Position numbers and translations under genes: made by a program. From assembly GCA_044868005.1 (NCBI GenBank), contig JBIOVX010000017.1:9377-73376 (forward strand): DNA of 64,000 nucleotides, given 5' to 3'. Within the stretch, counting starts at the first letter, position 1. Each line of letters starts with the position of its first letter. The notes beneath the pieces are model-generated. The model ran no database searches and was not told the DNA's origin. It was given only the letters and a program-made list of their open reading frames with translations. Shown here one piece after another: positions 4,142 to 50,256 of the stretch. Source of the stretch: Thermoanaerobaculia bacterium. GTDB lineage: Bacteria > Acidobacteriota > Thermoanaerobaculia > Multivoradales > UBA5704.

Positions 4142-4196
4142 GAGCACCACGTTCGCAACGTGGGGACCGAGGGTTCGAATCCCTTCTGCTCCACCA
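4142..4196 (+). pseudogene. Degenerate 3' part of tRNA-Ala(CGC) (att-like remnant)
   Basis: Anticodon arm CCACG-TT-CGC-AA-CGTGG, T arm gagggTTCGAATccctt, CTCCACCA end; the 5' acceptor strand is missing. Confidence 0.75.
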
Positions 4197-4225
4197 ATCT
4201 CCTCCTCTCAAAAGGCGAAGTAACC

Positions 4226-18099: not shown

Positions 18100-18983
18100 G
18101 CGTCCTGAGCAGGAGAAGATTCGGCGCCCTCGCCGCGCTGTCGTGCGGTCTCATGGTGATGGGGACGGCCGCGGCGAACGCACCCGTCGCCATCGTCTAT
18201 TCGCTGGCCGGCGAGGCCTCGCTCGCCGCTCCCCATGCGGCCCGCCGGCCGCTGCGGCTCTTCGATCGTCTGGGGGCCGGAACGACCGTGCAGGTCGGCC
18301 CGGGCGCTCGCCTGGCACTGGCGTTCGTGACCGGACGCCGCTACGAGCTGGGCGAACGTTCCCGGGTGACGCTCGGTGCGAAGGACCTCGCCACTCGCAG
18401 CGGGCCCGTGCGCGCGCTCCCCCGCGTTCCTCCACTGCCCCGCATTTCACCGATCGCGGCGAAGGACCGCCCGGGGGCAAAGGCCGGAGCTGTGAGGATT
18501 CGGGCGGAAAGCCTCACCGACCTTTATCCGGACCGCGGCGCGACGGCGTTGGCGGAGAAGACCGTCCTCCGCTTTCAACCGGTGGCGGCCACCCGCGGGT
18601 ACCGTATCGAGGTGCAGGATGATCGGGGTCGCAGCGTCTTCGCAACCGAAACGGCCGACTCTACGGTGCGTCTCCCGGCAGGGATCCTGCAGCCGGGCCG
18701 GCGCTACCGCTGGTGGGTCTCCACGGTGGAGCGCGCAGGCCCCGTGGCGCGCGGGGAAGCGGAGCTCGTGACCTTGCCGCAACGCACGGCGGAAGCGAGA
18801 GAGGCCCTGCGCCAGGCTGTCGAAGCGGCGGCAGACGGCTCTCTCCTCGCGCTGTTGGCCGAAGTCGATCGCAGTCTCGGCCTGCTGGCCGAAGCCAGGG
18901 AAGAATTCCGGGCGGCGCTCCAGGAATCCCCAGGGGACACCACTCTGGCCGAAACGCTCGGCCGGCGCCCAGACCCGCCATGA
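18096..18983 (+). CDS. Exported hypothetical protein (FecR-like N-terminus, DUF928-like C-terminus)
   Basis: ATGA overlap with the kinase; SRRRF plus hydrophobic signal; LQPGRRYRWWV motif, TPR-like tail. Family assignment is tentative. Confidence 0.6.
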   Translation: MSVLSRRRFGALAALSCGLMVMGTAAANAPVAIVYSLAGEASLAAPHAARRPLRLFDRLGAGTTVQVGPGARLALAFVTGRRYELGERSRVTLGAKDLATRSGPVRALPRVPPLPRISPIAAKDRPGAKAGAVRIRAESLTDLYPDRGATALAEKTVLRFQPVAATRGYRIEVQDDRGRSVFATETADSTVRLPAGILQPGRRYRWWVSTVERAGPVARGEAELVTLPQRTAEAREALRQAVEAAADGSLLALLAEVDRSLGLLAEAREEFRAALQESPGDTTLAETLGRRPDPP

Positions 18984-21900: not shown

Positions 21901-22210
21901 CCTGAACGCCGACCTGGTGACCCTCTCGGCCTGCGACACGGCGTTGGGAAGGGAGATGGGCGGCGAAGGCCTCGTCGGGCTCACGCGCGCCTTCCAGTAT
22001 GCCGGCGCCCGCACCGTCCTCGCCTCGCTGTGGAGCATCTCCGACCTCTCCACCTCCCGCATCATGCAGCGCTTCTACGGCTATCTCCGCGACGGCAAGT
22101 CAAAAGACGAGGCCTTGCGGGCGGCGCAGATCGATCAGATCCGCGGCAAGTCCGGCTCTTCCCATCCCTTCCACTGGGCGGCTTTCGAGCTGTTCGGCGA
22201 TTGGCGGTAA
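18980..22210 (+). CDS. Secreted PDZ-TPR-CHAT (caspase-like) protein 1
   Basis: Signal-like N-terminus, GVLVEEV...AGLQAGD (PDZ), many TPRs (ALAIRERLAP), CHAT dyad HFACHG / LSACDT, HPFHWAAF. Confidence 0.9.
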   Translation: MRKPHPAIWLSLGLVVACTAAGVRGPHEENVARAPGVLVEEVAAESLGARAGLQAGDLLVSWCRAASPDGPCLAAGRFETPFDFEAMELEEAPRGGVRILGKRAAVGTAWVLLPGSQSIKVRPVLTEDLLALYEEGRSLAGAEQLDMAVERWRSAARAAGHAGDGRLAVWFLLRAACALAEARKWPSADALFSEAAEQARLPGAAKLDAWIAKVWGKAFQRRGSWQEAEDLLRRSLDLDRKADPQGLAVSWDLHTLGTMAAQHSDLKAAEEHLRQALAIRERLAPRSLSLAATLMNLGNVIQLRGDLASAEDTLRRALSIQEDLAPGSAEIAGTLLNLGSLVGARGNFAESEELLRRAKAIYERTRPESLELAKALKNLSDLAADSYDTETSEYFLQRALAIEEKRDPSGAGLAITLENLGLQALDRGNLERAEEYLRRALSLEEKLEPEGLAFARGLKNLGVVALRRQDCATAETHLQRAFAIQQRLSPGSLSDAQTLEALGDIGLECGDLAEAEARYRQALAIREKLAPGTAGASLHSLGLTLRRQGHPLDAMEALCRAIDVSETPWERSDRKETQEASLFTDCLAARVELGQVAEAFHVLERGRARAFLKQLAERDLLFAANLPPEIARRKTELNQDLESAQGALARLNPAQDAAEIERLLNRLREIQDRQRELTAQIRKSSPRLASLQYPEPLDLAGARRILDPETVLLSYAVGEEESYLFVVQPPELAGPGLAVFRIPVGAKPLREAIASLDNLLQDARSDRAALTAQSRKLYALLIGPAEAQIAAAKRLLVSPSGPLHTLPFATLMRKDRYLVEWKPVHFVLSATVYAELKKARRAPADLTRGQVVAFGDPVYPPLPKDRNAAPAATLEILTAASRGLSLEPIPATRREVEGIASLYPQAETYLGGEATEEKAKSLGAEARLVHFACHGLLDERFPLNSALALTIPEHPAPGRDNGLLQAWEILESVRLNADLVTLSACDTALGREMGGEGLVGLTRAFQYAGARTVLASLWSISDLSTSRIMQRFYGYLRDGKSKDEALRAAQIDQIRGKSGSSHPFHWAAFELFGDWR

Positions 22211-22253: not shown

Positions 22254-23678
22254 ATGGGTTCAGAATTGAGACGCCTGCCTGATCATCGACCTTTGACCTG
22301 CGGGATCCTCGTCGCGCTCTCCTGCTGCTTCAGCACCGCGATCCTCCTGGCGGAAGAGCCAGAGGAAGGAGCCGTCGTGGAAGAGGTGGCTCCGGGCTCG
22401 GCGGCCGCGAGGGCGGGCCTGCAACCGGGGGACGCGATCCTCTCCTGGTCGCGAGGGGACGGGCTGAGCGGCCCGGTGCGATCTCCTTTCGAGCTCCCTC
22501 CGGTCGAGATCGAGCAGGCTCCCCGCGGCGCGGTCGTCCTCCGAGGTGCGAGGGAGGGTGCGAGCGCGGAATGGACCCTGCCGCCAGGCTCCTGGGGAAT
22601 CAAGGCGAGGCCCACCTTCCCGGAGCCGCTCCTCGCGGTCTACCGGCAGGGCCGGGACCGCATCGCCGCCGGAGACCTCGCGGAGGGAATCGGAGACTGG
22701 CGCTCCGCCGTGGAAGCCGCCGACCGCCGGCAGGATTCCCTCCGCGCCGCCTGGCTGCAGAGCCGTCTGGCGCGGGAGCTCGCCGGCGCCGCCCGCTGGG
22801 CCGAGGCGGACGAGGCTTGGGAGCGCGCCGTCGCGCGGCTGGAGCCGCCCGGGCCCGCGGCGGCGCAACTGCTGCGGCAGTGGGGCGAGTCGTTCCAACG
22901 GCGCAACCTCTGGGACCGTGCCGAAGAGTGTTACCGCCGGGCGCTGGCGCTCGACGCCGCGGAGAGCCTGGCGGCCGCCTGGGACCTCAACGCTCTGTCG
23001 CGGCCAAGGTCCGCCAGGCCTCGCCGCGGACCTCCGTCGCCGGCCGGCGAGCCGGGCGCGGCCCAGCCCGAGGTCCGCGCAGCGGTAGCCCGCGGCCTCT
23101 CTCTCACGCCGCTCCCTTCCGCTCGCGCAGAGATCCTCGAGATCGCCGGCCTCTACCCTGGGGCGCGGACCTTCCTGGGCGCCGAGGCGACCGAAGAACG
23201 GGCCAAGTCCATGGGCAAGGACGCGCGCTATCTCCATTTCGCCTGCCACGGGCTGCTCGACGAGCGATTCCCTCTCAATTCGGCCCTGGCCCTCAGCATC
23301 CCCGAGCGTCCCGCCGAAGGCCAGGAGAACGGCCTGCTCCAGGCCTGGGAAGTCATCGAGAGCGTGCGCCTCGACGCCGACCTGGTCACCCTCTCCGCGT
23401 GCGATACGGCGCTGGGAAAGGAGATGGGCGGCGAAGGCCTCGTCGGGCTGACCCGCGCCTTCCAGTTCGCCGGCGCCCGCACCGTCCTGGCGTCGCTGTG
23501 GAGCATCTCCGACGATTCCACCGCTGGCTTCATGAAGCGCTTCTACGGCTACCTCCGCAGCGGCAAGCCGAAGGACGAGGCGTTGCGGGCGGCGCAGATC
23601 GATCAGATCCGCGACAGGTCCGGCTCGTCGCATCCCTTCCACTGGGCGGCGTTCGAGCTGTTCGGCGACTGGCGATGA
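22254..23678 (+). CDS. PDZ-(short TPR)-CHAT protein 2, internally deleted
   Basis: Same N- and C-termini as the paralogues, but most TPRs and the first half of CHAT are missing; dyad HFACHG / LSACDT retained. Confidence 0.7.
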   Translation: MGSELRRLPDHRPLTCGILVALSCCFSTAILLAEEPEEGAVVEEVAPGSAAARAGLQPGDAILSWSRGDGLSGPVRSPFELPPVEIEQAPRGAVVLRGAREGASAEWTLPPGSWGIKARPTFPEPLLAVYRQGRDRIAAGDLAEGIGDWRSAVEAADRRQDSLRAAWLQSRLARELAGAARWAEADEAWERAVARLEPPGPAAAQLLRQWGESFQRRNLWDRAEECYRRALALDAAESLAAAWDLNALSRPRSARPRRGPPSPAGEPGAAQPEVRAAVARGLSLTPLPSARAEILEIAGLYPGARTFLGAEATEERAKSMGKDARYLHFACHGLLDERFPLNSALALSIPERPAEGQENGLLQAWEVIESVRLDADLVTLSACDTALGKEMGGEGLVGLTRAFQFAGARTVLASLWSISDDSTAGFMKRFYGYLRSGKPKDEALRAAQIDQIRDRSGSSHPFHWAAFELFGDWR

Positions 23679-26600
23679 GCCTCGCCAGGACGCTGACCGC
23701 CGTCTGCATGCTCCTCTTCCCTGCTGCTTACGCCGCAGAGATCATCCCCACCCTCGAACCCGACCTCCTCGCGCTCTACGAGCAGGGGCGGCAACGGATC
23801 GCGTCCGGGGACCTCGACGCGGGCGCGGCGCTCTGGCGGTCGGCCATCGAATCCCTGGAGCGGCAGGCCGCGTTGCAGCAAGCCTCCTGGCTGGAAGGCC
23901 AGTTGGCGAAGGCGTTCGCCGCGGCCGGGCGGTGGCCCGAGGCGGACGCGGCCTGGGAGCGGGCGGCGCTCCGAGTCGAGCCGCAATGGGCGCCGGCTGC
24001 GGTGCAGATCCTGCGCGCGTGGGGAGAGGCGCTGCAACAGCGCAGCGCCTGGGATCGCGCCGAGGCGTGTTACCGCCGGGCTCTCCGCCTGGAGCCGGAG
24101 GACAGCCTCGAGGCGGCGCGGGAGCTCAGCGCCCTGGGCTACATCGCGCGCCGCCGAGGCGACTTTGCGGACGCCGAGGGTCTCTTCCATCAGGCCTATG
24201 CCATCCGCGACAAGCTGGCTCCCGGGAGCCTCGACCTGGCGTCGAGCAGGAGCGAGCTCGGGATCCTGGCGGCGATCCGCGGCGAACCGGCAGCCGCGGA
24301 CGAGCTCTTCTCGCAGGCGTTGGAGGTGCAGCAGCGGCTCGCGGCGGACAGCATCCTGGTGGCCGGGACCATCATCAACCTGGGAAACACCGCCTTGGCG
24401 CGGGGCGACCTGGTTGCCGCCGAGGAGCGCTACCGGCGCGCGATCGCCCTGATCGAGCGGCAGAATCCGCAAGACCCCGAGCTCACGCGCGCCCTCAATA
24501 ATCTTGGCGAGGTCGAGGCGAATCGCGGTGAGCTCGCCTTGGCAGAGGAGCACTACCGGCGTGCGTTGGCCATCCAGCAAAAGCTGGCGCCCGAGAGTCT
24601 CCGCATCGCGGGAAGCCTTACGAAGCTGGGCAACCTGGCCGAGCAACGGGGGGATTTCGCGGCGGCCGAGGATCTCCTCCGCCGCGCCGTCGAAATGAGC
24701 GAGAAGATCTCCCCTCACTCCCTGGAGTTTGCCGGCAACCTCGCCAGCCTGGGTCGCTGCCAGCGCCGCAAGGGGGACCTGGCGAAAGCCGACGATTCCT
24801 TGCGGCGCGCGCTGGAGATCTTTGACCAGCGCTCGGCGGAGAGCGGGACCACCGCGATGATGCGCATCGAGCGAGCTACGATCGCCGTGGAGCGGGGCGA
24901 CCTGGCTCTGGCCGAGGAGCTCTACGGCCGCGCGCTCGCGTTTCTGGAAAAGCAACAGCAGGGGAGCCTCTCCGTCGCCGACAGCCTGGGGGGCCTGGGG
25001 ACCATCGCCCTCGCGCGCGGAGACCTGCCGAAAGCCGAGGAGCTCTTTCGGCGCGCGCTGGCCACCCGCGAGAAGGTGGCGCCGGGCAGCGCTCCAGTAG
25101 GGCTGTCCTTGAACGACCTGGGGCAGGTTTACCGCCGGTCGGGCGGGCGCGAGAAGGCGGCGGACCACTTCTGCCGCGCCACCGAGGTGTTCGACCAGCA
25201 GCGGAAGAAGCTCGGCGGGACCGCCGAGGAGAGGTCCGCCTTCGGCAGCACGACCGCGGAGTCCTACCGCGATTGCCTCGGTGCCCTCGTCGACGTCGGC
25301 CAGCCGGAAAGGGCCTTTCAGGTTCTGGAGCGCGGACGTGCCCGCTCGTTCCTCGACCTGCTGGCGGAGCGCGATCTGACGTGGACGGCCGATCTGCCGC
25401 CCGAGCTCGCCCGCGAGCGAAAGCTCACGCATGCCGAGTACGACCGCACGCAGGCGGCCCTCGCCCGTCTGAGCGCTGAGCGCGATCCGGCAGAGGTGAG
25501 CCGCCTGATCGTTCAGCTCCGGGAGATCCGGTCCCGGCAGGAAAAGATCGCGGCAACGATCCGCCAGATCTCGCCACGGACCTCCGCGCTGCAAGACCCG
25601 CGGCCGCTCGACCTGGAGGGCGTTCGGGCCGCGCTCGATCCCGGCACCGTGCTCCTCGCGTGGTCCGTCGGCAAGGAGAGATCTTTCCTCTTCGTCGTCC
25701 GGCCGGCAGGAGCGCCCGGCTCAGGCCTCGAGGTCTTTTCTCTTGCCCTTGGCGATCGGGCCCTGCGGGAGCGAGTGGCGTCTTTCCGCAACCTTCTGCA
25801 GCGCAGAGGATCGGACTCGAAAACGATCGCCGCACAGGCGAAGGAGATCTACGACGTCCTGCTGCGGCCCGCCGACGCGCGCATCGCCGCGGCCTCGCGG
25901 CTCCTCATCTCTCCTGACGGCCCGCTCCACACCCTGCCTTTCGCCGCCCTGGTCCGCAAGCGCCGTTTCCTGGTCGAGGAGAAGCCTGTCCACACCGTCA
26001 TTTCCGCCACCGTCTACGCCGAGCTCAAGCGTGCGCGTCCGGACACGTCCGGTCCCGGCGAGGAGAGCCTCGCGGCTTTCGGCGATCCGGTCTATCCGAA
26101 ATCCACTCCGGACGTCCCGGCCGACCTCGAGCTCCGGGAGGTCTTGCGGCGCGGTGCCGTGCTGAAGCCTCTTCCCGCCACGCGGGCGGAGGTGGAGAGC
26201 ATCGCCGCCCTCTATCCTGGGGCACGGTCCTACCTCGGCCGCGACGCCACGGAGGAGAAGGCCAAAGCCATCGGTCCCGGGTCGCGCCTCGTTCACTTCG
26301 CCTGTCATGGCCTGCTCGACGAGCGCTTTCCGCTCAACTCCGCGCTGGCGCTTTCCTTGCCCGAGCATCCAGCCGAAGGTCAGGACAACGGCCTGCTCCA
26401 GGCGTGGGAGATCTTCGAGAGCGTGCGCCTCGACGCCGACCTGGTGACCCTCTCCGCTTGCGACACGGCGTTGGGCAAGGAGATGGGCGGCGAAGGCCTC
26501 GTCGGGCTCACCCGCGCCTTTCAATACGCCGGCGCCCGCACCGTCCTCGCCTCGCTATGGAGCATCTCCGACGTCTCCACCGAACGCTTCATGAAGCGCT

Positions 26601-26737
26601 TTTATCGCTACCTCCGCAATGGCAAGTCGAAAGACGAGGCCCTGCGGGCGGCGCAGATCGACCAGATCCGCGGCAAGGCCGGCTCCTCCCATCCCTTCCA
26701 CTGGGCGGCGTTCGAGCTGTTCGGCGATTGGCGGTGA
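23675..26737 (+). CDS. Secreted TPR-CHAT protein 3 (no PDZ)
   Basis: ATGA overlap; signal peptide MSLARTLTAVCMLLFPAAYA; TPRs; HFACHG / LSACDT. Confidence 0.9.
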   Translation: MSLARTLTAVCMLLFPAAYAAEIIPTLEPDLLALYEQGRQRIASGDLDAGAALWRSAIESLERQAALQQASWLEGQLAKAFAAAGRWPEADAAWERAALRVEPQWAPAAVQILRAWGEALQQRSAWDRAEACYRRALRLEPEDSLEAARELSALGYIARRRGDFADAEGLFHQAYAIRDKLAPGSLDLASSRSELGILAAIRGEPAAADELFSQALEVQQRLAADSILVAGTIINLGNTALARGDLVAAEERYRRAIALIERQNPQDPELTRALNNLGEVEANRGELALAEEHYRRALAIQQKLAPESLRIAGSLTKLGNLAEQRGDFAAAEDLLRRAVEMSEKISPHSLEFAGNLASLGRCQRRKGDLAKADDSLRRALEIFDQRSAESGTTAMMRIERATIAVERGDLALAEELYGRALAFLEKQQQGSLSVADSLGGLGTIALARGDLPKAEELFRRALATREKVAPGSAPVGLSLNDLGQVYRRSGGREKAADHFCRATEVFDQQRKKLGGTAEERSAFGSTTAESYRDCLGALVDVGQPERAFQVLERGRARSFLDLLAERDLTWTADLPPELARERKLTHAEYDRTQAALARLSAERDPAEVSRLIVQLREIRSRQEKIAATIRQISPRTSALQDPRPLDLEGVRAALDPGTVLLAWSVGKERSFLFVVRPAGAPGSGLEVFSLALGDRALRERVASFRNLLQRRGSDSKTIAAQAKEIYDVLLRPADARIAAASRLLISPDGPLHTLPFAALVRKRRFLVEEKPVHTVISATVYAELKRARPDTSGPGEESLAAFGDPVYPKSTPDVPADLELREVLRRGAVLKPLPATRAEVESIAALYPGARSYLGRDATEEKAKAIGPGSRLVHFACHGLLDERFPLNSALALSLPEHPAEGQDNGLLQAWEIFESVRLDADLVTLSACDTALGKEMGGEGLVGLTRAFQYAGARTVLASLWSISDVSTERFMKRFYRYLRNGKSKDEALRAAQIDQIRGKAGSSHPFHWAAFELFGDWR

Positions 26738-26889: not shown

Positions 26890-26978
26890 CCCTCTCGACC
26901 AAGCCGGCAGGGATGACAGGCGATCAGATATCTGAGCTTCGTTATCGAGAGAGGGCACGACTACGAAAGGAGAAAAGG

Positions 26979-27461
26979 ATGATTCGGTTGAACAAAGCGC
27001 TTTTCTTTGCGGGTATCGCGGCGATGGTGCTGATGCTCAGCGCCGCGCCGGCCTCGGCGTGCGTCAACTACTTCTACGGCACGTCGGGCGACGACGTCAT
27101 CAATGGGACGACCCAGGAGGATTGCATCTTCGGCGGCGGGGGACATGACAACCTTTGGGGGTCCAGCGCCGATGACTACATCAACGGCGGTGACGGGCCC
27201 GACCTGGTGTACGGCGCTGTCGGCTCAGACGAGCTCGACGGCGCGGCGGGCACCGATTACATGGAAGGCGGTTCAAACGTCGATTACATGGAGGGCCGGC
27301 ATGGAGACGACACCCTCTATGGCGACGAGGGGAACGACTACGTTTACGGCGGCGGCGAAAACGATTACCTGGACGGCGGCAGCGGCTGGGACACGCTCGA
27401 CGGCATGACCGGCACGGATACCTGCGTCGCGGGAGAATCGCTCACGAGCTGCGAGTTTTAG
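26979..27461 (+). CDS. Small secreted RTX/hemolysin-type Ca-binding repeat protein
   Basis: AAGGAG RBS; signal peptide ending APASA; about 12 GGxGxDxLx-type nonapeptides; terminal Cys residues. Confidence 0.88.
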   Translation: MIRLNKALFFAGIAAMVLMLSAAPASACVNYFYGTSGDDVINGTTQEDCIFGGGGHDNLWGSSADDYINGGDGPDLVYGAVGSDELDGAAGTDYMEGGSNVDYMEGRHGDDTLYGDEGNDYVYGGGENDYLDGGSGWDTLDGMTGTDTCVAGESLTSCEF

Positions 27462-27529: not shown

Positions 27530-30500
27530 ATGCCGGCAAACTCTGTGCGCAGCAGATGCTGCCTCGCTCTCCTGATCGCTCTCTCCGCAGCGCCCCTGGC
27601 GGCTGAGACTGCCGTCACGGGCACGGTCTTCGGACCTGCGGGCCAACCCCTCGCCGGTGCTCGCGTCGAGCTCGTTCCGGTGCTGAGCAACTTCGAGGCA
27701 GGGCGATTGCGCCTCGCCGGGCAGCAGGATCCCCGTCCCGTCGCCCAAGGCAAGAGCGACGCCGCGGGCCGCTATGCCCTGCAGGCCCCCGCTGCCGGCG
27801 TATTCAAGGTCGTCGTCCGCGACCTAGGCCGGCTACCGATGCAGTACTCGCCGCTCCTGCTGGTGCAGGATGAGGAGCTCCCACCGGTCTCGCTGACCGC
27901 CGATGCCGGCGCCCGAGCGGTCATCCAGGACGCCGCCGGCCGGCCTCAGGCCAGGGCCTGGGTGTTCGCCGCGAGCAGCGACGAAGGAAGGACGCAAGGC
28001 CGCGCCGTCGCCGGCTGGCGGGCGGACTTCCGGCTCGGCCTGACCGGCGAGGACGGCACCGTTTCACTTCCCAGGCGGGAGGGAGAGCGGCTGGACGTCA
28101 GCGTCTTTCCTCCGGGAGGCGCCGAGCTGCAGCAGCTCGACTGGGCCGGAGGAACGATGACCGTCAAGGCGGGTGAAGCGGCCGTCCACCGCGTGCGGGT
28201 GCTCTCCACCAAGGGCGAACCCGCGGGCGGCGTCCTGGTCCGCGCCGGCGGCCTGGCCTGGCCCGTCGGGCTCACGGATGGCGACGGCCGGCTGCAGATT
28301 CCTCGTGCGCCGGGACAATCCGGGAAGCTCCGGCTGGTGGCTGCAGACGGCCGGCAGCAGAGCGTGGATCTGCCTGCCGAAACGGCGGATTCCGAGGTGG
28401 TCGTCACCCTCGCCGAGCCCGCCCTGGTAGCGGGCCGCATCACCCAACAGGAGACCGGGCAACCGCTGGCCGGCGCGCTCGTCAGTCCGGGTCTCGATCC
28501 CGGAGCGTTCGTGCTTGCGGGCGCGGATGGAGGCTATCGGCTGGTGGCCCCCGATCCCCAGGGATTTCCGTTGCGGGTGCAGGCCCTCCTCCGCCTGCCC
28601 AAGTCTCTCCGCATCACCCCGCCCCACGTGCGAGCGGGGCGGATTCCCACGGTAGCCTTGACGCGGGCCTCGGCGCTCCGCGGCCTGGTGGTCGATGCCC
28701 GGGGGTTGCCCCTCGCCGGCGCCGCCGTTCTCGCCTCCCCCGAGCGGAGCACGGAGCCCGGTGCCGCGGCGGCCCTGGAACGCAGCGCGACCGACGGCTC
28801 CGGCCGCTTCGAGCTCCGGCGGCTGCGTGCCGGAACCTCCTATGAGATCAGGACGGTCCGTCCGGGCTATCTGCCGGCTTCCACCAGGATGCCGGCGCCG
28901 TCCGGGGACGCGCCGGCCCTGAAGATCGTCCTCGCCGCCGCCCGCGCGGCCCACGGCAGGGTCCGGGATGCTGCCGGCAGACCCGTCTCGGGAGCCGAGA
29001 TCCGCCTCGAGCCGGCGCTCGCTCCCGGCGTCCGGCGTCCGGCGAAGGAGGCCGACGAGGCGAGCGATCCCTTCGCCGCCCGCACGGACGGGGAAGGCCG
29101 CTTCCGGCTCGACGGGGTCCCGGCGGAGCGGGTGGACCTCACGGCCCGCCAACCCGGCTACGCCACCGGACACGTTCGCGGCATCCGCATCCCTCCGGGA
29201 GAGGGACCCGCGGATCTGGGCACCGTCATCCTGAAGCCCGGAGCCCGCCTCCCGGGGCGCGTCGTCGACCGCCGGGGCGCTCCTGTAGCGGGGGCCGCTG
29301 TCCACCTCGTAGAGAGCCTCGACCATCTGGAGCGGGAGAGCGCGCGGCTCGCGGCCGAGACCCCGGATGCCATGACCGGAGCCGACGGCTCCTTTCTCAT
29401 CGAGGATCTCCCCCAGGCGACCCCGCTGCATCTCCTGGTGCGCGCTTCCGGCCACCTGCCGGCCGGTGTGGCAGGCGTGCGCGCCCCGGTATCGCAGCCC
29501 TTGATCGTCCGCCTCGAGCCGGCCGCGATGCTGCGCGGCCGCGTCGTCGACGAGCAGGGGGCGCCTGTAGGCGGCGCCCGGGTGATGCTTACCTGGCATC
29601 CGACCGCACCTGAAAATCCGGACCGGCCGGCCGGATCTCCCGTCAATCGCTCGGACATCGCCGGCCGCGACGGCTCGTTCGAGATCCGGGATGCTCCCGC
29701 CGGCCCCGTGCGCCTCGCCGTTTCCGCCCCGGGCTTCGTGTCGATCGAAGGTTTCGAAACCGCGGTCCCCTGGCGCGATGCGGACCGCGAGCTGACGCTC
29801 ACCCTGAAGAGAGGGGCGATGCTCAGCGGCCGCATCGCCACCACCGCGGGCCAGCCGGTCTCGGGAGCCCGCATCTCGGCCCAGGACGCCGCCGACGTAT
29901 CCGACGACGAAGGCGCCTACACCGTGCAAGGGGTCCCCCTGGGGCGCACCGAGGTCCAGGTCTTTCACCCCTCCTACAAGCTGTTCCGGCGCGTGATCGA
30001 GATCCAGCCGGGCACCAATCCGCTGGACGTCACCTTCGAAGCAGGGCTGGAGGTCTCGGGCCGGGTGAGAGACGGCCGGGGAGCGCCCGTGGCGGGAGCC
30101 CAGGTCGTCCTCCTCCGGCAGGCGCGAAGGGACTGGGGAGCCTATCGCGAGCGCACCGACGACGACGGGAGCTTCCGGTTCGCGGCGGTCGCCCGGGGCC
30201 ACTACCGCCTGACCGCGGGCGGCGAGAGCTACGCCGCGACGGAATGGAAGCAGCCCGTCGTCGTCGAGGACGAGCCCCTCGAGGGTCTGGAGGTCGTGCT
30301 CGAACGCGGCGGCACCGTCACCGGCCGGATCCTGGGCCTCGATGCGGAACAGCTCGCCCGCGTGGCAGTGGCAGCCGAGGGCGACGACGGCGAGTCCTTC
30401 CCGGCCATGGTGGACGCCGACGGCCGCTACGAGATCCGCCATCTTCCCCCCGGCGACTACCTGGTGCGGGCGGCCCTCGAATCAGGACAGCGGCAGGTGC

Positions 30501-31582
30501 AGGCCCGGGTGGCTTTGCCGCCGGGAGACGCGGAAGCCGTGCGCGATCTGCAGTTCGTTTCCCGCCTGACCCTCTCCGGTCAGGTGCTCTATCAGGAAGA
30601 GCCGCTCTCGGAAGCCAGGATCTCCATCCGCGGGAGCCGTCTGGCGATGGAGCGCTCGGTGGAGACCGACTACCAAGGAGGATTCCGCTTCGAAGACCTG
30701 GAGCCGGACACCTATCGGCTCGGCTTGAGCCATTCCCGCGAGCTTCTCGTCCACAACGACATCGTCGAGCTGTCCGCGGATCGCGAGATCACCATCCGGC
30801 TCCGGCCCTCCACCGTCAGCGGCTTCGTCACGGACGGGAAGAGCGGGCGTCCCATTCCTCACGCCCATCTCACCCTCCGCCACGTCGAAGGAGCGGAATT
30901 CCTCATCAGCGACAGCGCAGGGGAGGACGGCGCCTTCAGCGTCCACCGTGTTCCGGCGGGTTCCTATCTCTTGACCGCGCGTGCTTCCGGCTATTCTCCC
31001 GCGGAGCAAGACCTCGCCGTCTCGGCCGGGCAGGACGTGTCGGGCCTGGAGGTTGCCCTCGCGCCCACACGCGGTCTGGAGCTGATGGTCCGTCTGGCCT
31101 CGGGCCGCCTTCCCGATCGAGTCCACCTCCGGGTGGTGAGCCCGACCGGCGCCGTGGTCCTCACGGAGACCCGGCCGATCGATCCGTCCGGCAAGGTCGA
31201 TCTTGCGACCCTGCCCGAGGGGAGCTGGATCCTGCTTCTGAGCACGCCCGGCAGCGCCACCGCCGTGGTCCCGGTCACGGTTCCCGGAGAGCTTCTCCGC
31301 GTGACTCTCCCCGGGGCCGGCCAATTACATATCCGAGTCCCCGCCTTGGTCACTTCGGATCTCCGCGCCACGGTGACCTTGAGCGCGGCGGACCAGCCCT
31401 TCTGGGTCGTGGGTCCGGGAGGCAGCCTCCAGGACAGGTGGCCGCTCGTGGGCGGCAAGGCGTCGATCGAAGGCGTCCCGGCCGGCCGCTGGCAGATCCG
31501 GGTGGAGTCGCCGGACGGGCGGAGCTTGACAAGACCGATAACGACATCGGGACAGGGTGAGATGGAATTGATGGTGGAGTGA
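27530..31582 (+). CDS. Large secreted carboxypeptidase-regulatory-like (CarboxypepD_reg) repeat protein
   Basis: Signal peptide; repeated G.V.D..G.P..GA.V...TD..G.F...L..G.Y.L.A...GY units. Confidence 0.85.
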   Translation: MPANSVRSRCCLALLIALSAAPLAAETAVTGTVFGPAGQPLAGARVELVPVLSNFEAGRLRLAGQQDPRPVAQGKSDAAGRYALQAPAAGVFKVVVRDLGRLPMQYSPLLLVQDEELPPVSLTADAGARAVIQDAAGRPQARAWVFAASSDEGRTQGRAVAGWRADFRLGLTGEDGTVSLPRREGERLDVSVFPPGGAELQQLDWAGGTMTVKAGEAAVHRVRVLSTKGEPAGGVLVRAGGLAWPVGLTDGDGRLQIPRAPGQSGKLRLVAADGRQQSVDLPAETADSEVVVTLAEPALVAGRITQQETGQPLAGALVSPGLDPGAFVLAGADGGYRLVAPDPQGFPLRVQALLRLPKSLRITPPHVRAGRIPTVALTRASALRGLVVDARGLPLAGAAVLASPERSTEPGAAAALERSATDGSGRFELRRLRAGTSYEIRTVRPGYLPASTRMPAPSGDAPALKIVLAAARAAHGRVRDAAGRPVSGAEIRLEPALAPGVRRPAKEADEASDPFAARTDGEGRFRLDGVPAERVDLTARQPGYATGHVRGIRIPPGEGPADLGTVILKPGARLPGRVVDRRGAPVAGAAVHLVESLDHLERESARLAAETPDAMTGADGSFLIEDLPQATPLHLLVRASGHLPAGVAGVRAPVSQPLIVRLEPAAMLRGRVVDEQGAPVGGARVMLTWHPTAPENPDRPAGSPVNRSDIAGRDGSFEIRDAPAGPVRLAVSAPGFVSIEGFETAVPWRDADRELTLTLKRGAMLSGRIATTAGQPVSGARISAQDAADVSDDEGAYTVQGVPLGRTEVQVFHPSYKLFRRVIEIQPGTNPLDVTFEAGLEVSGRVRDGRGAPVAGAQVVLLRQARRDWGAYRERTDDDGSFRFAAVARGHYRLTAGGESYAATEWKQPVVVEDEPLEGLEVVLERGGTVTGRILGLDAEQLARVAVAAEGDDGESFPAMVDADGRYEIRHLPPGDYLVRAALESGQRQVQARVALPPGDAEAVRDLQFVSRLTLSGQVLYQEEPLSEARISIRGSRLAMERSVETDYQGGFRFEDLEPDTYRLGLSHSRELLVHNDIVELSADREITIRLRPSTVSGFVTDGKSGRPIPHAHLTLRHVEGAEFLISDSAGEDGAFSVHRVPAGSYLLTARASGYSPAEQDLAVSAGQDVSGLEVALAPTRGLELMVRLASGRLPDRVHLRVVSPTGAVVLTETRPIDPSGKVDLATLPEGSWILLLSTPGSATAVVPVTVPGELLRVTLPGAGQLHIRVPALVTSDLRATVTLSAADQPFWVVGPGGSLQDRWPLVGGKASIEGVPAGRWQIRVESPDGRSLTRPITTSGQGEMELMVE

Positions 31583-31597
31583 GATGGTCCCGGAAAT

Positions 31598-31632
31598 AAG
31601 TCCGGCTCGCCCCACCCCTTCCACTGGGCGGC
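31598..31632 (+). pseudogene. Vestige of a CHAT gene 3' end
   Basis: aagtccggctcgccccaccccttccactgggcggc (KSGSPHPFHWA) closely matches 22148-22182. Confidence 0.65.
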
Positions 31633-31657
31633 CCCCCGCGAACGCGATCGCTCGGTT

Positions 31658-31702
31658 TTTCAACGACTTGTGAGCACCGTTGTGCCAGGTGCCGAAATTG
31701 CT
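31658..31702 (+). promoter_or_regulatory. IHF-like site plus sigma54-like promoter of the small peptide gene
   Basis: TTTCAAcgacTTG (close to WATCAAnnnnTTR); aGGtgccgaaaTTGCt with GG-N10-GC. Confidence 0.45.
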
Positions 31703-31750
31703 CTCCGTGGCAGCGAGCGGAAGAAAAACTATCGAAAGGAGGTGATCTCA

Positions 31751-31807
31751 ATGCGCGTCGCGACACACGTCAAAGCAGGAGCCAGGGCCGTAATCATCGA
31801 TTTGTAA
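31751..31807 (+). CDS. 18-aa small peptide MRVATHVKAGARAVIIDL
   Basis: Perfect SD GAAAGGAGGTGA ending 5 nt before the ATG; followed by a hairpin; too short for the ORF track. Confidence 0.75.
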   Translation: MRVATHVKAGARAVIIDL

Positions 31808-31825
31808 CCGACCCCGGTTGACGAG

Positions 31826-31854
31826 TCCGGCCGGATCTTCGCGATCCGGCCGGA
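31826..31854. terminator. Hairpin between the peptide gene and the sigma54 activator
   Basis: tccggccggatc-ttcgc-gatccggccgga. Confidence 0.65.
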
Positions 31855-33453
31855 TCAGTCGTCCGCTCCGCCGCCCGCGGCCGAGATCCCCAGACTCTTC
31901 ATATACCGGTGAAAGGTCGCCTTGGTGAGCCCCAGGCTCTCCCGGGCGGCCTTGACGTTGCCGCCGTGAAGCTCCAGACGCGACTGGATGAGCTCGCGCT
32001 GGAAGTCGCGCAGAGCGTCGCGCATCGAGCCGTCGCCCAGCAGGGGAGCGGCCTTGGGGTTGGGTTCTCCACGCACGACTTCAGGCAGGCAGCTTTCGAT
32101 CAGCGCCGGATCGATCCGGGCGCCGGGCCGCGCGTGGATCACGAACAGCGAGCAGGCGCGCGCCACCTCCCGCACGTTGCCCGGCCAACCGTAGGAGACG
32201 AGCGCGCGCACCGCCTCGCGGGTGAAGCCGAGCGTCCGCTTGCGGTGCTTGCTCTCGTGGTGCCGCCGGAAGTGCTCCAGCAGCAGCGGGATGTCCCGCG
32301 GCCGCTCGCGCAACGGCAGGAGCCGGATGGCGAGCGAGCGGAAGCGGTCGTAGAAGTCCGCCCGCAGGGTTCCCTTGCGGACCGCCTCGGCAAGATCGCG
32401 GTTGGTGGCCAGCACGACCGCCACGTCGACCGGGATCTCCCGCGTCTGCCCGACGGGGACGACGCGATGGTTCTCGAGCACCCGCAGCAGATGGGCCTGC
32501 GCCCGCAGCGTGAGATCGGCCACCTCGTCGAGGAAGAGGATGCCGCCGTTGGCCGCGCGGAAGAAACCGGGCTCGTCGGTGATGGCGCCGGTGTAGGAAC
32601 CCTTCTTGTGGCCGAAGAAGCGGGAGGCCGCGAGCTCCTCCGTGATCTCGGCGCAGTTGACCACCACCAGGGGTTTGCGGCTGCGCGAGCTGTAGGCGTG
32701 CAGGTAGCGCGCGACGAGGTCCTTGCCCGTGCCTCGCTCTCCCAGGATCAGGATGGGCTCGGGATTCTCCGTGTCCAGGGCAGGGATGTACGTCTCGTGC
32801 AGCGCGTGCCGCAGCGCCTCGGTGGCCGCCGAGTCGCCCAGGATCTCCGGCGCGTCGGCGCTCTCATCCGCGGCGGCGAGGAGATCGCGCAGCTCGCGCG
32901 CCTGCCGCTCCTGGCGGAAGTAGAAGCCGCAGGTCCGGCCCACCGCCGCCGCGTATCTCGCCAGCCAGGCGCGGTCCTCCTCTCGATAGGCCTCGGTGAG
33001 GCCGCGGTTCTGGAAGTAGACCACGGCGAGCACCGCGTCGCGGACCGGATCGCGGATCGGCGCGCAGAGCACGCTGAAAGGACCGTCCTCCAGCGAGGGT
33101 GTGCGCGAGACGTCGGCGCGCAGCCGCGGATCCTCGATCAGCTCCGGCTCGCCGGTCGCGATGACGCGTTGGATCAGAGAGGGGCTCACCCCCGGGACGG
33201 ACTCGCCTCTCTCGCACGCCGCGATCTGTTCCGGGGTGAGCCTGCCGACGGTCTCGATGTTGCGCAGGCGCAAGGGCTCGCGCTCCTCCACCAGCAGGAG
33301 CAGGGCCTTGCGGGCGCCGAACCCCCGCGCCGCGGCGGTGAACGAGGCGCGCAGAGCCGCCTCCTCGCCGGCCTCGCTCGCCAGCACCGCCAGGAGCTCG
33401 TTCATCGCCTCCAGGAGCTGAGCGTAGTCGCGGCCTTCGGGGGAGGTCGTCAT
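31855..33453 (-). CDS. GAF + sigma54-interacting AAA+ + Fis-HTH transcriptional activator
   Basis: GERGTGKDL, VNCA, FGHKKGSYTGA, LFLDEV, WPGNVRE, C-terminal HTH; N-terminal GAF (SVLCAPI). Start may be at 33504. Confidence 0.9.
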   Translation of the reverse strand: MTTSPEGRDYAQLLEAMNELLAVLASEAGEEAALRASFTAAARGFGARKALLLLVEEREPLRLRNIETVGRLTPEQIAACERGESVPGVSPSLIQRVIATGEPELIEDPRLRADVSRTPSLEDGPFSVLCAPIRDPVRDAVLAVVYFQNRGLTEAYREEDRAWLARYAAAVGRTCGFYFRQERQARELRDLLAAADESADAPEILGDSAATEALRHALHETYIPALDTENPEPILILGERGTGKDLVARYLHAYSSRSRKPLVVVNCAEITEELAASRFFGHKKGSYTGAITDEPGFFRAANGGILFLDEVADLTLRAQAHLLRVLENHRVVPVGQTREIPVDVAVVLATNRDLAEAVRKGTLRADFYDRFRSLAIRLLPLRERPRDIPLLLEHFRRHHESKHRKRTLGFTREAVRALVSYGWPGNVREVARACSLFVIHARPGARIDPALIESCLPEVVRGEPNPKAAPLLGDGSMRDALRDFQRELIQSRLELHGGNVKAARESLGLTKATFHRYMKSLGISAAGGGADD

Positions 33454-33494
33454 CTCGCCGGCCTCGATGATATGCGATCGAGCTCGGCTCGGCG

Positions 33495-35348
33495 TCATTC
33501 GCACGTCAGCCGCAGCCGCCGCTTGTTGGTGCGCGACTCGGCGAGGGCGATCTCCTTGAGGGTGGGGAAGGCCGCGGGATCGATCCAGCGCTGGCGCAGC
33601 TCGGTGCCCCGCTCGAGGACCAGCACCCTGCCCTTGACGGCGAGCTGCTGGCGGAAGGCGCCGAGATCGTTCTGCACCGTCACGTCCTGCCCTTCGACCT
33701 TGCAGGCGTCCCTGGGCAGGGTGACGCGCCAGGCGACGCGGCTGGCAAAGGGGCGAAGCACCAAGGGCACGGAGCGGCCGTCGAGCAGCCCGGAGGCGGG
33801 CATATCCACCATGTATGGCAAGGGAATCGCCGGCAGGGCGCTTTCCCCGGCGGACACCCCCAGGGACGGCACGCGCACCTTCGCTTCCAGCCTCACGGCG
33901 GGCACGCCACCGGCGACCGGTTGCAGGCGGATGCCGTCCACCGTGGCGCCGGCGGGCAGGAAGGCGGCGAAGACTTCGCGCACCACCCGGTCGACGTCCT
34001 GCGGCCTGCCGTCGGCGTGCAGCCGGAGAAAGTCGGCGCCGGCCTCGCCGGAGAGGTCCAGGCGCACGGCGCCGCTCGCTTCGCCGCTCGCCGCCAGGTC
34101 GAGATCCGCTTCCAGCCGGCGCCCTTCCTCGCCGCTGCGGATCGGCGTCCGCACCAGCTCGGCACGGCCGCCGCGCATCACCAGAGCCTCCTGATCCTGC
34201 ACGGCCGGCTGCAGCCAGCCGAGCCCGCCGGTCTCCTGCGTGGCGTCGAGGAAGAGGTAGCCGCCGGAGACCGGCGCCTGCTCACCCAGAGCGAGACCGG
34301 CGGCGGGCACGGCGACGATCATGTGGTTGAACTGATAGGGCGACGCGAACTCGCGGTCCACCCGGCCTTTCGGATCGAGCCGGATGAGGGCCGGGTAGGC
34401 CTCGACGCCGGCCTCGCGCAGCAGGTCGATGAGCAGCAGGGCCTTGTCCTTGCAGTCGCCCCAGAGCCGCCCGACGACCTGCTCCGGCGGGGCGGGACGG
34501 AAACCGCCGATGCCGATCTCGACGGCGACATATCGCACCTGCCGGCGCGCGAAGTCGGTAAGGATCTCCATCTGCCGCTCGCGGCCGGCGACGCCGGCGA
34601 TCAGCTCGCGCGCCTTGTGCCGCACCGGCTCGGCGCCGCGGGGAATCTGCGCGGTCAGCCCTTCGAACCACCGGGCCACGGCTTCCCATCCCGCCGAATC
34701 GCCCCAGGCATAGCGCAGCACGGCGCCGTCGTAGGCGATGCCGGGTGCGCGCTCCGGCGGCGCCAGGCGCGGCAGATGGGACGCCGCGACGGTGACCCCG
34801 CCCGCCGACTCCTGGACGTCGAGCCCGGGGAGCTCACCGTCGATCCGCCAGCGCCAGCCGGCGCCGCCGCCGTGCACCGAGACGCGCAGCGACTCGACGG
34901 GATCCGTGGAGCCGAGGTCCAGGTGGCCCGCCGGGAAGTAGGGCCGCTCGCGCACCTCGAAGTCCACGCTCAGCACCGAGCCCACGGGCACGGCCGGGAA
35001 GCTGACGGTGCGCAGCCGCAGCGACGAGTGCAGCTCGCCGGCGCCCGTCACCTGCTGGGTGTCGAGGTCCCGGCGAGACACTTTGAGGACCCTGCCGTCC
35101 GGCCGGGTGGCGGTCGCCGTGAGGTCCACCAGCTCGCGGTTCTCGTCGAGCGCCACGGGGTAGGGAGACCAGAGCGAGAAGTCGCCGGGCTCGTCGAGCC
35201 TCACCCGCAGGCGCCTGCGCTCGGCGACCGAGCCGTCGGGCCGGATCTCGACGTCGATTGCCCGCTCGAGCACCGTGGCGCCGCGCGCCGGCGCGGCGAG
35301 AGCGAGGAGCAGGAGGCTAGCGGCGGACCAGCAGCAGCTTCTGGGCAT
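33495..35348 (-). CDS. DUF3857 + transglutaminase-like protein (catalytic triad intact)
   Basis: VRYVAVEIGIGG, GDCKDKA, FNHMIV, FLDAT; signal peptide. Confidence 0.88.
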   Translation of the reverse strand: MPRSCCWSAASLLLLALAAPARGATVLERAIDVEIRPDGSVAERRRLRVRLDEPGDFSLWSPYPVALDENRELVDLTATATRPDGRVLKVSRRDLDTQQVTGAGELHSSLRLRTVSFPAVPVGSVLSVDFEVRERPYFPAGHLDLGSTDPVESLRVSVHGGGAGWRWRIDGELPGLDVQESAGGVTVAASHLPRLAPPERAPGIAYDGAVLRYAWGDSAGWEAVARWFEGLTAQIPRGAEPVRHKARELIAGVAGRERQMEILTDFARRQVRYVAVEIGIGGFRPAPPEQVVGRLWGDCKDKALLLIDLLREAGVEAYPALIRLDPKGRVDREFASPYQFNHMIVAVPAAGLALGEQAPVSGGYLFLDATQETGGLGWLQPAVQDQEALVMRGGRAELVRTPIRSGEEGRRLEADLDLAASGEASGAVRLDLSGEAGADFLRLHADGRPQDVDRVVREVFAAFLPAGATVDGIRLQPVAGGVPAVRLEAKVRVPSLGVSAGESALPAIPLPYMVDMPASGLLDGRSVPLVLRPFASRVAWRVTLPRDACKVEGQDVTVQNDLGAFRQQLAVKGRVLVLERGTELRQRWIDPAAFPTLKEIALAESRTNKRRLRLTCE

Positions 35349-41303: not shown

Positions 41304-41312
41304 GGGCCGGTC

Positions 41313-49011: not shown

Positions 49012-49039
49012 GGCGGGCAGTGCGGGATTATATGGGGTC

Positions 49040-50254: not shown

Positions 50255-50256
50255 CT

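Follow-up and report, generated by a model that had tools for sequence, protein, structure and literature searches.

A predicted 18-codon peptide gene in a sigma-54/CHAT locus of a Thermoanaerobaculia bacterium and its place in a large, unnamed family of leader–core peptides

Is an 18-codon reading frame, wedged between the gene of a large repeat protein and a convergent regulator gene, a gene at all, and if so, what could its product be for? The question is raised by a stretch of 64,000 nucleotides (nt) of a Thermoanaerobaculia bacterium (assembly GCA_044868005.1, contig JBIOVX010000017.1, positions 9,377 to 73,376), referred to here as the window. The original prediction, made from these letters, had placed a peptide gene of 18 amino acids (aa) within 31734-31854, and these coordinates correctly bracket an open reading frame (ORF) on the plus strand at 31751..31807, with an ATG at 31751, 17 further sense codons and a TAA at 31805-31807 (product MRVATHVKAGARAVIIDL). 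As had been stated, the gene is missing from the ORF list, because at 18 aa it falls below the list minimum of 60 aa. A Shine-Dalgarno site, GAAAGGAGGTGA, lies at 31734-31745, 5 bases 5' of the ATG. Judged by its paralogues in the same genome, its orthologous copies and a variant from an RNA library, the ORF is a genuine, conserved coding gene and not a chance ORF. Its codons 1-11 (31751-31783, plus strand) would encode a leader, MRVATHVKAGA, and codons 12-18 (31784-31804, plus strand) a core, RAVIIDL. We consider it slightly better than an even chance (about 0.55) that the peptide is trimmed after Gly10-Ala11, exported by machinery encoded elsewhere in the genome and released as RAVIIDL, an extracytoplasmic signal or ligand.

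The subfamily pattern T-H-V-K-A-G-[GA]-[RK]-A was searched in 41 genomes of the genus and in 401 of the class; 3 of the 41 matched, and the same 3 were the only ones among the 401. Six homologous genomic copies were thereby obtained, one in the window's own genome (G000) and five in the syntenic locus of two congeneric genomes: four tandem copies in G004 (MRVTTHVKAGARAQVIETG, MRVTTHVKAGARASIIDTG, MRVTTHVKAGGRAVIIETG and MHVTTHVKAGARAVVIEIG) and a single copy in G051 (MRVTTHVKAGARAVIIETG). A JGI (Joint Genome Institute) metagenome contig, L150, carries an array of at least four more, some ending in -IITTG and -IIET. The original prediction had made its case depend on conservation in homologous loci, and the copies in G004 and G051 provide it. 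Over 17 alignable codons the six genomic copies vary at 4, 3 and 10 sites in first, second and third codon positions, respectively, and in the leader alone at 1, 2 and 7; such a bias to third positions marks a sequence that is translated and under purifying selection. The ribosome-site block AAGGAGGTGATC is invariant in the alignment of the three genomes and recurs 5' of the paralogues described below. The peptide pattern had first been run on 1.5-kb flanks of 18 loci orthologous to the convergent regulator gene, where no match was found; these flanks were too short, as the G004 array lies 3.6 kb from the regulator.

The window copy differs from its relatives at two places. Position 4 is Ala where the subfamily has Thr (Thr4Ala), and the gene ends in GAT TTG TAA, which, compared with GAA ACC GGG TAA in G051, resembles a 6-nt insertion into the latter; this apparent indel accounts for the end -DL instead of -ETG. 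A contig from an RNA library (Logan, rhizosphere metatranscriptome run X19; 151 nt, depth 4) covers 31724-31865 with 8 differences and is 94% identical. Five of the changes fall within the ORF, namely His6 CAC to CAT (synonymous), Ala11 to Gly, Arg12 to Lys, and Leu18 TTG to CTA, the last being two changes that are both synonymous. The contig thus encodes a relative's variant, MRVATHVKAGGKAVIIDL, in which the frame, the stop and the -IIDL end are kept. RNA libraries can contain DNA and contigs cannot show transcript ends, and we regard this contig as weak evidence of transcription and as better evidence that the -IIDL form is maintained. Run X19 does not cover 31000-31701, and a further run, X20, covers neither that part nor the ORF, so that both are uninformative there either way. 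In a soil DNA run from another study (X5) the stretch 31486-31857 is present with 0 differences; the arrangement is therefore not an assembly artefact.

The original prediction referred to small proteins of the type MKxKTxVKAG and proposed a search for small ORFs of the form M[RK]x{2}T[HN]VKAG and their neighbours. Such genes turned out to be abundant, both in the bacterium's own genome and in a scan of a genome collection. In the 7.07-Mb assembly (67.7% GC) a six-frame search with M[RK]xx[TS]xV[KR]AG gave 7 matches, each with a strong Shine-Dalgarno site, while about 0.01 would be expected by chance according to our own estimate with uniform codon frequencies. The seven members are the window gene, a singleton on contig C107 (MKVKTNVKAGGETQGPSNLTS) and a tandem array of five 16-codon genes on contig C124 (locus L001, 9412-9933, minus strand), which encode MRVKTTVKAGG-VVTGD, MRIKTTVKAGG-TISTT, MRVKTKVKAGG-TPLPA, MRVKTTVKAGG-VLIGD and MRVKTTVKAGG-VITGD. 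This array lies directly 3' of genes for a HlyD-family adaptor (388 aa), a protein with Peptidase_C39 and ABC domains (1003 aa) and a further ABC protein (734 aa). Aligned to PCAT1 (PDB 4ry2), the C39 domain has the catalytic Cys, His and Asp in place. The genome holds one further C39 gene, on contig C148. Beyond the C124 array follow genes for a Cys/Met-metabolism enzyme dependent on pyridoxal phosphate, a member of the glyoxalase family and a protein with ankyrin repeats.

A search of one genome for each prokaryotic species, with M-[KRQHNS]-[VIM]-x-T-x-V-K-A-G-[GA] written as a degenerate DNA pattern, then gave matches in at least 119 stretches; the counts below refer to the matches listed. 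The invariance of positions 1, 5 and 7-10 follows from the search pattern, by construction. At least one match with a Shine-Dalgarno site was present in 106 of the 119 loci; in 10 only matches without such a site were found, which we take as chance matches, and 3 loci had no regex match. In the consensus, M-[KR]-[VI]-K-T-x-V-K-A-G-[GA] precedes a hypervariable core of usually 5-8 residues. Among 117 short members, position 4, which the pattern leaves free, is Lys in 88; at position 11, 93 members have Gly and 24 have Ala, sometimes within one core type; the part after position 11 measures 5-8 residues in 90; and 46 members end in Gly, 25 in Asp and 2 in Leu. Two or more copies occur in 30 of 105 loci, and the cores x-[ST]-W-x-x, V-L-I-G-D, I-T-V-T-G-A-D, G-P-I-M-D-P-N-G and G-G-N-F-G-G recur. 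The loci are predominantly from Acidobacteriota (Thermoanaerobaculia, Blastocatellia, Pyrinomonadaceae, Bryobacteraceae and Holophagales), the remainder from Pirellulaceae and other Planctomycetota, Myxococcota, Chloroflexota and some Gamma- and Betaproteobacteria. With MRVATHVKAGA followed by RAVIIDL and a strong Shine-Dalgarno site the window peptide fits this definition and is a divergent member of the family with Gly-Ala in place of Gly-Gly.

The family also has long relatives, in which a unit ..VKAGG-xxx-NHNQT-xx-RGLKVKTx.. is iterated up to about 10 times. They are repeat proteins of 50-200 aa, each unit consisting of a leader-like KVKTxVKAGG, xxxNHNQT and a spacer (for example L095 1050-1376, L118 2075-2695 and L107 7452-7931, among others), and are frequently encoded beside an extracytoplasmic function (ECF) sigma factor and a protein with kinase, transmembrane and TPR parts. 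With one long relative as query, 1276 database proteins were matched at E <= 0.001. Among the best 120 of the 1276, all are unnamed or labelled "hypothetical protein", except for one generic label; none has a Pfam family covering the repeat, and three carry an unrelated precomputed Pfam entry. Scanned members of at least 20 aa (short ones of 21 aa, or of the repeat type) gave no credible match in Pfam or NCBIfam. A search of the full-text literature for family strings, which did not cover supplementary files that possibly list such peptides, returned only unrelated papers. The family is thus large, widespread and unnamed, and is without a Pfam or NCBIfam model.

Neighbouring ORFs of at least 100 aa from the 119 listed loci were clustered, the clusters were named by Pfam and domains were counted with phmmer seeds. 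Within the 8-kb chunks, 31 of 106 listed loci contain an ORF with an ABC nucleotide-binding domain (one of them, L092, is a doubtful member), 24 a HlyD ORF and 19 a C39 ORF; because the chunks were cut arbitrarily and many of them end close to a peptide, these counts are lower bounds. The usual order is HlyD, C39-ABC, ABC and peptides, the last ABC gene lying 50-470 nt from the first peptide. Ser/Thr kinases with TPR repeats form a second recurring context (14 of 106 loci), often together with an ECF sigma factor (8 loci); the TPR cluster as such was found in 34 listed loci. Most of the kinase-TPR proteins have one predicted hydrophobic segment between the kinase and the TPR region, and the TPRs would therefore face outward. 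The recurrent neighbour families thus comprise ABC/C39, HlyD, TPR kinases, ECF sigma factors and a few unnamed proteins. Sigma-54 activators (3) and CHAT proteins (2) are rare partners among the listed loci. Control by sigma-54 was considered as a family-wide trait and rejected: a GG-N8-NTGC-type match was found within 160 nt in 15 of 155 members, against a background of 0.13 per 160 nt.

How does the leader compare with known export leaders? The original prediction divided the peptide after KAG and saw a likeness to double-glycine cleavage sites. The likeness is borne out by the C39 double-glycine peptidase ABC exporters that adjoin family genes, and the division into leader and core is real, while the boundary is likely to lie one residue further, after KAG-A, since the invariant part extends to Gly10 plus Gly or Ala11. 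The end Gly10-Ala11 corresponds to the Gly-Gly, Gly-Ala or Gly-Ser that ends the leader of substrates of peptidase-containing ABC transporters (PCATs), and Gly-Gly and Gly-Ala forms are interchangeable within core types; the X19 variant has Gly-Gly. A classical double-glycine leader has 15-30 residues with conserved hydrophobic positions at -4, -7, -12 and -15 in an LSxxELxxIxGG-type pattern. The window leader fails this consensus, as it has 11 residues with Val at -5 and -9 and Lys or Arg at -4, -8 and -10. Like the substrates of PCATs (class II bacteriocins, competence pheromones, NHLP/Nif11-type precursors), the family combines a Gly-Gly or Gly-Ala leader end with a hypervariable core, occurs in tandem gene arrays and is found beside C39-ABC, a second ABC and HlyD genes, with the C39 catalytic residues present. 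It differs from them in its short basic leader without the LSxxELxxIxGG-type pattern, in cores of only 5-8 residues and in the lack of a Pfam or NCBIfam match for the scanned members of at least 20 aa; the window copy differs further in being unlinked to an exporter and placed in a locus with sigma-54, CHAT and kinase genes. Because the leader consensus fails and the leader end and the exporter linkage hold at the level of the family, we regard the system as a variant of the double-glycine/PCAT kind that belongs to no named family. A caspase-like protease could also act at the basic residue that follows the leader specifically in this subfamily (Arg, or Lys in the X19 variant).

The locus around the window gene is shared with the two related genomes. 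Downstream, and convergent with the peptide gene, lies the gene of a sigma-54 enhancer-binding protein (EBP) with GAF, AAA+ (sigma-54 interaction) and helix-turn-helix domains (31855..33504, minus strand; Pfam, NCBIfam), whose orthologues in genomes of the genus are 73-91% identical (83% in G004, 91% in G051). G004 has the order kinase-CHASE2, PDZ-TPR-CHAT, four peptides, an 852-aa Ig-like/Calx-beta protein, a 172-aa protein and the EBP on the opposite strand, and G051 the order kinase, CHAT1, CHAT2, peptide, Ig-like fragment, EBP on the opposite strand, EBP paralogue, RTX and CarboxypepD_reg. Common to all three genomes is the sequence kinase-CHASE2, PDZ-TPR-CHAT, promoter, peptide(s) and regulator. 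In G004 (L142) the 852-aa protein with Ig-like, DUF1573 and Calx-beta domains (13478-16036) stands under its own second cassette, and the 172-aa protein (16304-16822), which has no family match, has a third enhancer pair upstream. A search for literature combining the CHAT domain, CHASE2 and sigma-54 found no paper.

The original prediction described the peptide gene as its own transcription unit, with a Shine-Dalgarno site, an IHF-like site, a GG-N10-GC motif and a downstream hairpin, and each of these elements was found in the sequence. The predicted IHF-like site TTCAACGACTTG lies at 31659..31670 and a sigma-54-type core promoter, GG-N10-GC with TTGCT at -12, at 31688..31702 (GG 31688-89, GC 31700-01, TTGCT 31698-31702), both on the plus strand. 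The core is conserved in G004 (two promoters, before the peptides and before the Ig-like gene), G051 and a further genome, G013, and the IHF-like motif TTTCAAnGnnTT keeps the same distance from GG in these four orthologous promoters. The spacer between promoter and ribosome site is rich in indels among the orthologues, and TTTCAAnGnnTT, the core and AAGGAGGTGATC align. The genome has rpoN, on contig C277. The GC-rich hairpin with its 13-bp stem (about 31825-31855) stands between the convergent genes and overlaps the stop codon of the regulator gene; its folding energy is -36.7 kcal/mol (z = -4.45; 0 of 200 shuffles as good). A simple terminator scan returned no terminator-like site in 31300-32100, the hairpin scoring as nothing since it has no U-tract. 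The G051 peptide copy is followed by a different GC-rich hairpin and then TTT. No Rfam family reached its threshold at the peptide region (best 19.5 bits compared with a gathering score of 75).

What the window promoter lacks are enhancer sites. In this genus near-palindromic 16-mers, GTTYCAnnnnTGRRAC, occur as two copies exactly 33 nt apart, as would be expected of activator binding sites. Such pairs lie at 13308/13341, 16126/16159 and 18581/18614 in G004, with one clear single site at 12712, at 8511/8544 and 8814/8847 in G051, and at 22224/22257 and 26762/26795 in the window; they precede six promoters or genes in G004 and G051 together and two places in the window. The second window pair (26762-26777 and 26795-26810, plus strand) is followed by a sigma-54-like core, TGGTCCGACTTCTGCA, at 26874-26889, 5' of an RTX-repeat gene. 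At the position of the orthologues' enhancer, by contrast, the peptide promoter is joined through a deletion to the 3'-end remnant of a CHAT gene (31598..31636, plus strand, ending in ..KSGSPHPFHWAA). In G013 a nearly identical promoter keeps its 16-mer pair and drives a choice-of-anchor-D secreted protein. The idea of a transcription unit of its own thus stands as far as the conserved IHF-like site and core are concerned, and falls short where the paired enhancer sites are deleted. Since these are lost, transcription probably also, or mainly, comes by read-through from the upstream operon; in the window genome the peptide gene would depend either on read-through from the RTX/CarboxypepD_reg operon or on distant activation. 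The window also has a promoter-less 16-mer pair at 22224-22272, overlapping the start of the short PDZ-CHAT gene described below. A full cassette of 16-mer pair, IHF-like site and sigma-54 core is present on contig C246 of the same genome (about 17010-17141); at about 17280-17310 it is followed by a Shine-Dalgarno-like AAGGAAG, a 9-codon ORF (MIAKRTYLL) and then, in another frame, a reading frame that resembles a signal-peptide protein, perhaps a cargo gene with a frameshift.

The CHAT gene situated before the G004 and G051 peptides has near-full-length orthologues in 13 other genomes of the genus (61-78% identity), and 12 loci with such a gene were read for what follows it. Peptides follow in 2 of the 12 (G004 and G051), and the copy on contig C125 of the window's own genome carries the deletion junction. 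In 4 of the 12 an enhancer/IHF-like/sigma-54 cassette drives another product: a subtilase-like secreted protein in G041 (our motif reading, with no family match), a choice-of-anchor-D protein with a signal peptide in G013, a Cys-rich 287-aa protein with a signal peptide in G015 and, in G020 (L162 4894-5094), a 67-aa Cys-rich peptide with a canonical double-glycine leader ending in ..LEARDMASVAGG (ASVAGG). The G020 peptide stays below threshold for TIGR04149 (20 bits, cut-off 25) and for the lanthipeptide leader (18.2, cut-off 22). In the other 5 (G022, G054, G008, G046 and G002) the stop was not found, too little sequence was available or no cassette or cargo was evident. The position after the CHAT gene thus appears from these arrangements to be a slot for interchangeable exported products, and such cargo, one of it with a double-glycine leader, fits export of the window peptide.

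Our preferred reading, trimming and export in trans, would run in four steps. The peptide gene lies behind a sigma-54 core promoter with an IHF-like site which, by sequence and conservation, belongs to the regulon of the adjacent EBP; it would probably also, or mainly, be transcribed by read-through from the enhancer-equipped RTX/CarboxypepD_reg operon. Following the family neighbourhoods, the C124 C39-ABC exporter with its HlyD adaptor would recognise the precursor, cut after Gly10-Ala11 and export the product. The heptapeptide RAVIIDL might then, more speculatively, act as an extracytoplasmic signal or ligand for sensors of the locus, the TPR or PDZ domains of the CHAT lipoproteins or the CHASE2 domain of the kinase being candidate receptors, and feed back on the regulon. 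Being placed in a locus of secreted products under a dedicated regulator, the product may be a signalling peptide. Several observations weigh against this reading. There is no PCAT in cis; the nearest C39 genes lie on other contigs, and the C39 linkage, seen at family level and at the C124 array, does not extend to the loci of the window, G004 and G051, where no C39 gene was found. The leader has 11 residues, is basic and carries its hydrophobic residues at -5 and -9, not at -4 and -7 of the classical consensus, and we know of no classical double-glycine leader that is as short and basic. The window promoter is without the 16-mer pair that all orthologous promoters have. Nine of the slots read are without a peptide, four of them with another secreted product and five with no cargo seen, and the link between peptide and CHAT protein may be only positional. 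The subfamily is rare (3 of 41 genus and 3 of 401 class genomes), the C-terminus of the window peptide differs from that of all orthologues through the apparent 6-nt indel, and the X19 contig, which stems from a relative and not from the window strain, is possibly contaminating DNA.

Some of these observations would also suit a decaying copy, in which case the family is real but the window gene is a rearrangement remnant that has lost function and regulation. In favour are the deletion of the enhancer pair, with a CHAT stump abutting the promoter, the single copy compared with four in G004, and Thr4Ala together with an altered, shorter C-terminus; a C-terminus unlike that of all orthologues means that the copy could be drifting. 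The locus is also visibly prone to recombination. An intact CHAT gene matching the stump lies on contig C125, fused directly to a 3'-end fragment of an EBP gene on the opposite strand (about 12361-12450), and the same junction is seen as a joint in the DNA run X1; recombination among repeated segments from the ends of CHAT and EBP genes thus appears to have reshuffled the locus. Nevertheless, the start codon, the Shine-Dalgarno site, the IHF-like site and the -24/-12 elements of the window copy are intact, the soil sample X5 contains the identical sequence over 31486-31857, and the 94%-identical relative in X19 keeps frame, stop and -IIDL end with synonymous changes. We consider decay unlikely.

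Could the product instead be a ribosomally synthesised and post-translationally modified peptide (RiPP), the 11-residue N-terminus serving as recognition site for a modifying enzyme and the short core becoming a modified product before export? The leader–core build, the tandem genes with diverse cores and the linkage to PCAT and HlyD are typical of RiPP loci, and the long relatives, which iterate the leader-like unit with its NHNQT core, look like multi-core precursors. Yet among the clustered neighbours of the 119 listed loci, several recurrent families of which lack a Pfam match, no recurrent recognisable modifying enzyme was found, and none was found in the three CHAT-type loci either; moreover, the cores are without the usual Cys/Ser/Thr patterns. 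A RiPP precursor thus seems a rather improbable alternative to the export of a linear peptide.

The original prediction also noted PDZ domains in two neighbouring CHAT proteins and likened the C-terminal IDL to a PDZ-binding end. These neighbours are CHAT-A (18980..22210, plus strand), a lipoprotein with lipobox, PDZ-like domain, TPR repeats and CHAT, and a short signal-peptide PDZ-CHAT protein (22266..23678, plus strand). The first half of the claim is plausible, as both have a PDZ-like N-terminal domain, with one of the two profile scores below threshold: in the about 110 residues that follow the signal, PF00595 scores 24.8 bits in the short protein (cut-off 23.2) and PDZ_6 20.5 bits (cut-off 27) in CHAT-A, both weak matches that take in no more than about the first 25 profile positions. 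An AlphaFold model of the PDZ-like region, based on a 5-sequence alignment, has a mean pLDDT of 75.8, and Foldseek matched it in the PDB almost only to PDZ domains (RseP PDZ2, MucP, DegS, DegQ, DegP, Nas2, GRASP; best E = 8.6e-3, TM 0.46-0.54, none at E <= 0.001). The two CHAT proteins thus probably carry PDZ domains. As they start with a lipobox or a signal peptide, their PDZ and TPR domains would be extracytoplasmic.

On these grounds the free C-terminus (..IDL) could dock into the PDZ domain of a CHAT lipoprotein and activate or target its caspase-like protease, in the way that C-termini of outer membrane proteins activate DegS. Several of the closest folds, the PDZ domains of RseP, MucP, DegS, DegQ and DegP, were solved with bound C-terminal peptides; the CHAT proteins are exported and an exported peptide could meet them; and the terminal Leu codon of the X19 variant differs from that of the window by two synonymous changes. 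The second half of the claim did not hold up: Leu is the last residue in the window peptide and the X19 variant, but Gly or Thr in the other 8 subfamily copies read, which end in ETG, DTG, EIG, TTG or ET. The idea of a PDZ ligand is unsupported because orthologues end in -TG or -IG and not in a hydrophobic residue, and Gly and Asp prevail at the end of the 117 family members listed. Furthermore, of the CHAT gene directly before the G004 and G051 peptides only the 3' remnant is left in the window, the intact copy being on another contig; unrelated cargo fills the same slot in other genomes; and the PDZ assignment is itself near threshold. DegS, RseP/MucP and tail-specific proteases are likewise exported proteases with an N-terminal PDZ-like domain, and theirs are the closest folds; here, however, a caspase-like CHAT domain follows TPR repeats, instead of an HtrA or site-2 protease, and the orthologous peptides lack the hydrophobic end. 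We consider PDZ docking improbable.

That the peptide is a small bacteriocin, one of several interchangeable secreted weapons of an inducible locus, is very improbable: although the slot is occupied in G020 by a Cys-rich peptide with a double-glycine leader and in G015 by a secreted protein that is likewise Cys-rich, and PCAT/HlyD systems are classical bacteriocin exporters (PMC10986499, PMC7018657), seven residues in a linear, unmodified peptide are very few for a bacteriocin, the window has no immunity-like gene beside it and no modifying enzymes were found among the clustered neighbours of the 119 listed loci.

Two known signalling systems are worth comparing with the export of a short linear peptide. 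In heterocyst-forming cyanobacteria, PatS is encoded by a gene of fewer than 20 codons and its active part is a short C-terminal peptide, while HetF is a caspase-like CHAT-type protease in the same developmental pathway. With a tiny gene, a PCAT and a CHAT-type protease, PatS, HetC and HetF are the nearest biological analogy. HetC is a PCAT of about 1000 aa that, as proposed in PMC10986499, exports a yet unidentified signalling peptide from a Gram-negative bacterium. The window peptide has no sequence similarity to PatS and no RGSGR motif, the lineage is Acidobacteriota, and here peptide, exporter and protease are linked through gene neighbourhood alone. The RRNPP pheromones of Firmicutes, sensed by TPR proteins, are similar in that the predicted mature peptides have 5-8 residues and TPR signalling proteins recur beside family members. 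RRNPP receptors are cytoplasmic and the peptide has to be imported, whereas the TPRs here lie behind a predicted membrane segment of a kinase or on lipoproteins and would face outward; phyla and export route differ as well.

The remaining genes of the window complete the picture of the locus. A Ser/Thr protein kinase with a CHASE2 sensor domain (16054..18099, plus strand) is 70% identical to its counterpart at the same position in G004. The short PDZ-CHAT protein has the look of a deletion or recombinant, in which an N-terminal part runs straight into a C-terminal CHAT part and most of the TPR region is absent. It is followed by CHAT-B (23675..26737, plus strand) with signal peptide, TPR and CHAT but no PDZ, whose start overlaps the previous stop by 4 nt (ATGA); a 1388-aa ORF at 22571..26737 is an over-extension across these two genes. 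Then come, directly 5' of the peptide gene, two genes for cargo of secreted type, the RTX-repeat protein (26913..27461, plus strand) and a 1350-aa protein with ten CarboxypepD_reg repeats (27530..31582, plus strand), both with homologues in the G051 locus. On the other side the EBP gene is the last of an overlapping three-gene unit on the minus strand (33495-37266), together with two proteins with DUF3857, transglutaminase-core and DUF3858 domains; such genes were considered as part of the system and rejected, since they were not found in the fetched G004 and G051 loci. Further away are a run of family-2 glycosyltransferase genes (39649-46760), among them a fusion with a PIG-L deacetylase domain, a protein of 623 aa whose C-terminal domain is a 2OG-Fe(II) oxygenase (52078-53949), and two ORFs, 4124..8767 (1547 aa) and 48322..51405 (1027 aa), with no Pfam match at E <= 1e-5.

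Genes this small escape standard annotation, and the window gene opens onto a family of hundreds in several phyla. The locus also exposes a modular sigma-54 cassette, composed of 16-mer pair, IHF-like site and -24/-12 elements, which serves as promoter for interchangeable secreted cargo beside PDZ-TPR-CHAT lipoproteins. A wider proposal, which we put forward only tentatively and think doubtful as a whole, is that the KAGG-leader peptides could form a widespread, unrecognised signalling system of diderm bacteria from soil and water (Acidobacteriota, Planctomycetota, Myxococcota, Chloroflexota, also some Proteobacteria). Linear 5-8-mers from genes of 16-19 codons would be trimmed and exported by PCAT and HlyD and sensed by outward-facing TPR domains of kinases, together with ECF sigma factors, or by PDZ-CHAT proteases; in this genus one subfamily would have been wired into a sigma-54/EBP regulon of secreted proteins as an autoinducible circuit. 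As putative sensors and exporters are encoded alongside the peptides, the idea is directly testable. If 5-8-mers are indeed exported, they would represent a rare case, in bacteria of the Gram-negative type, of short signals made by the ribosome, or else of very small secreted effectors.

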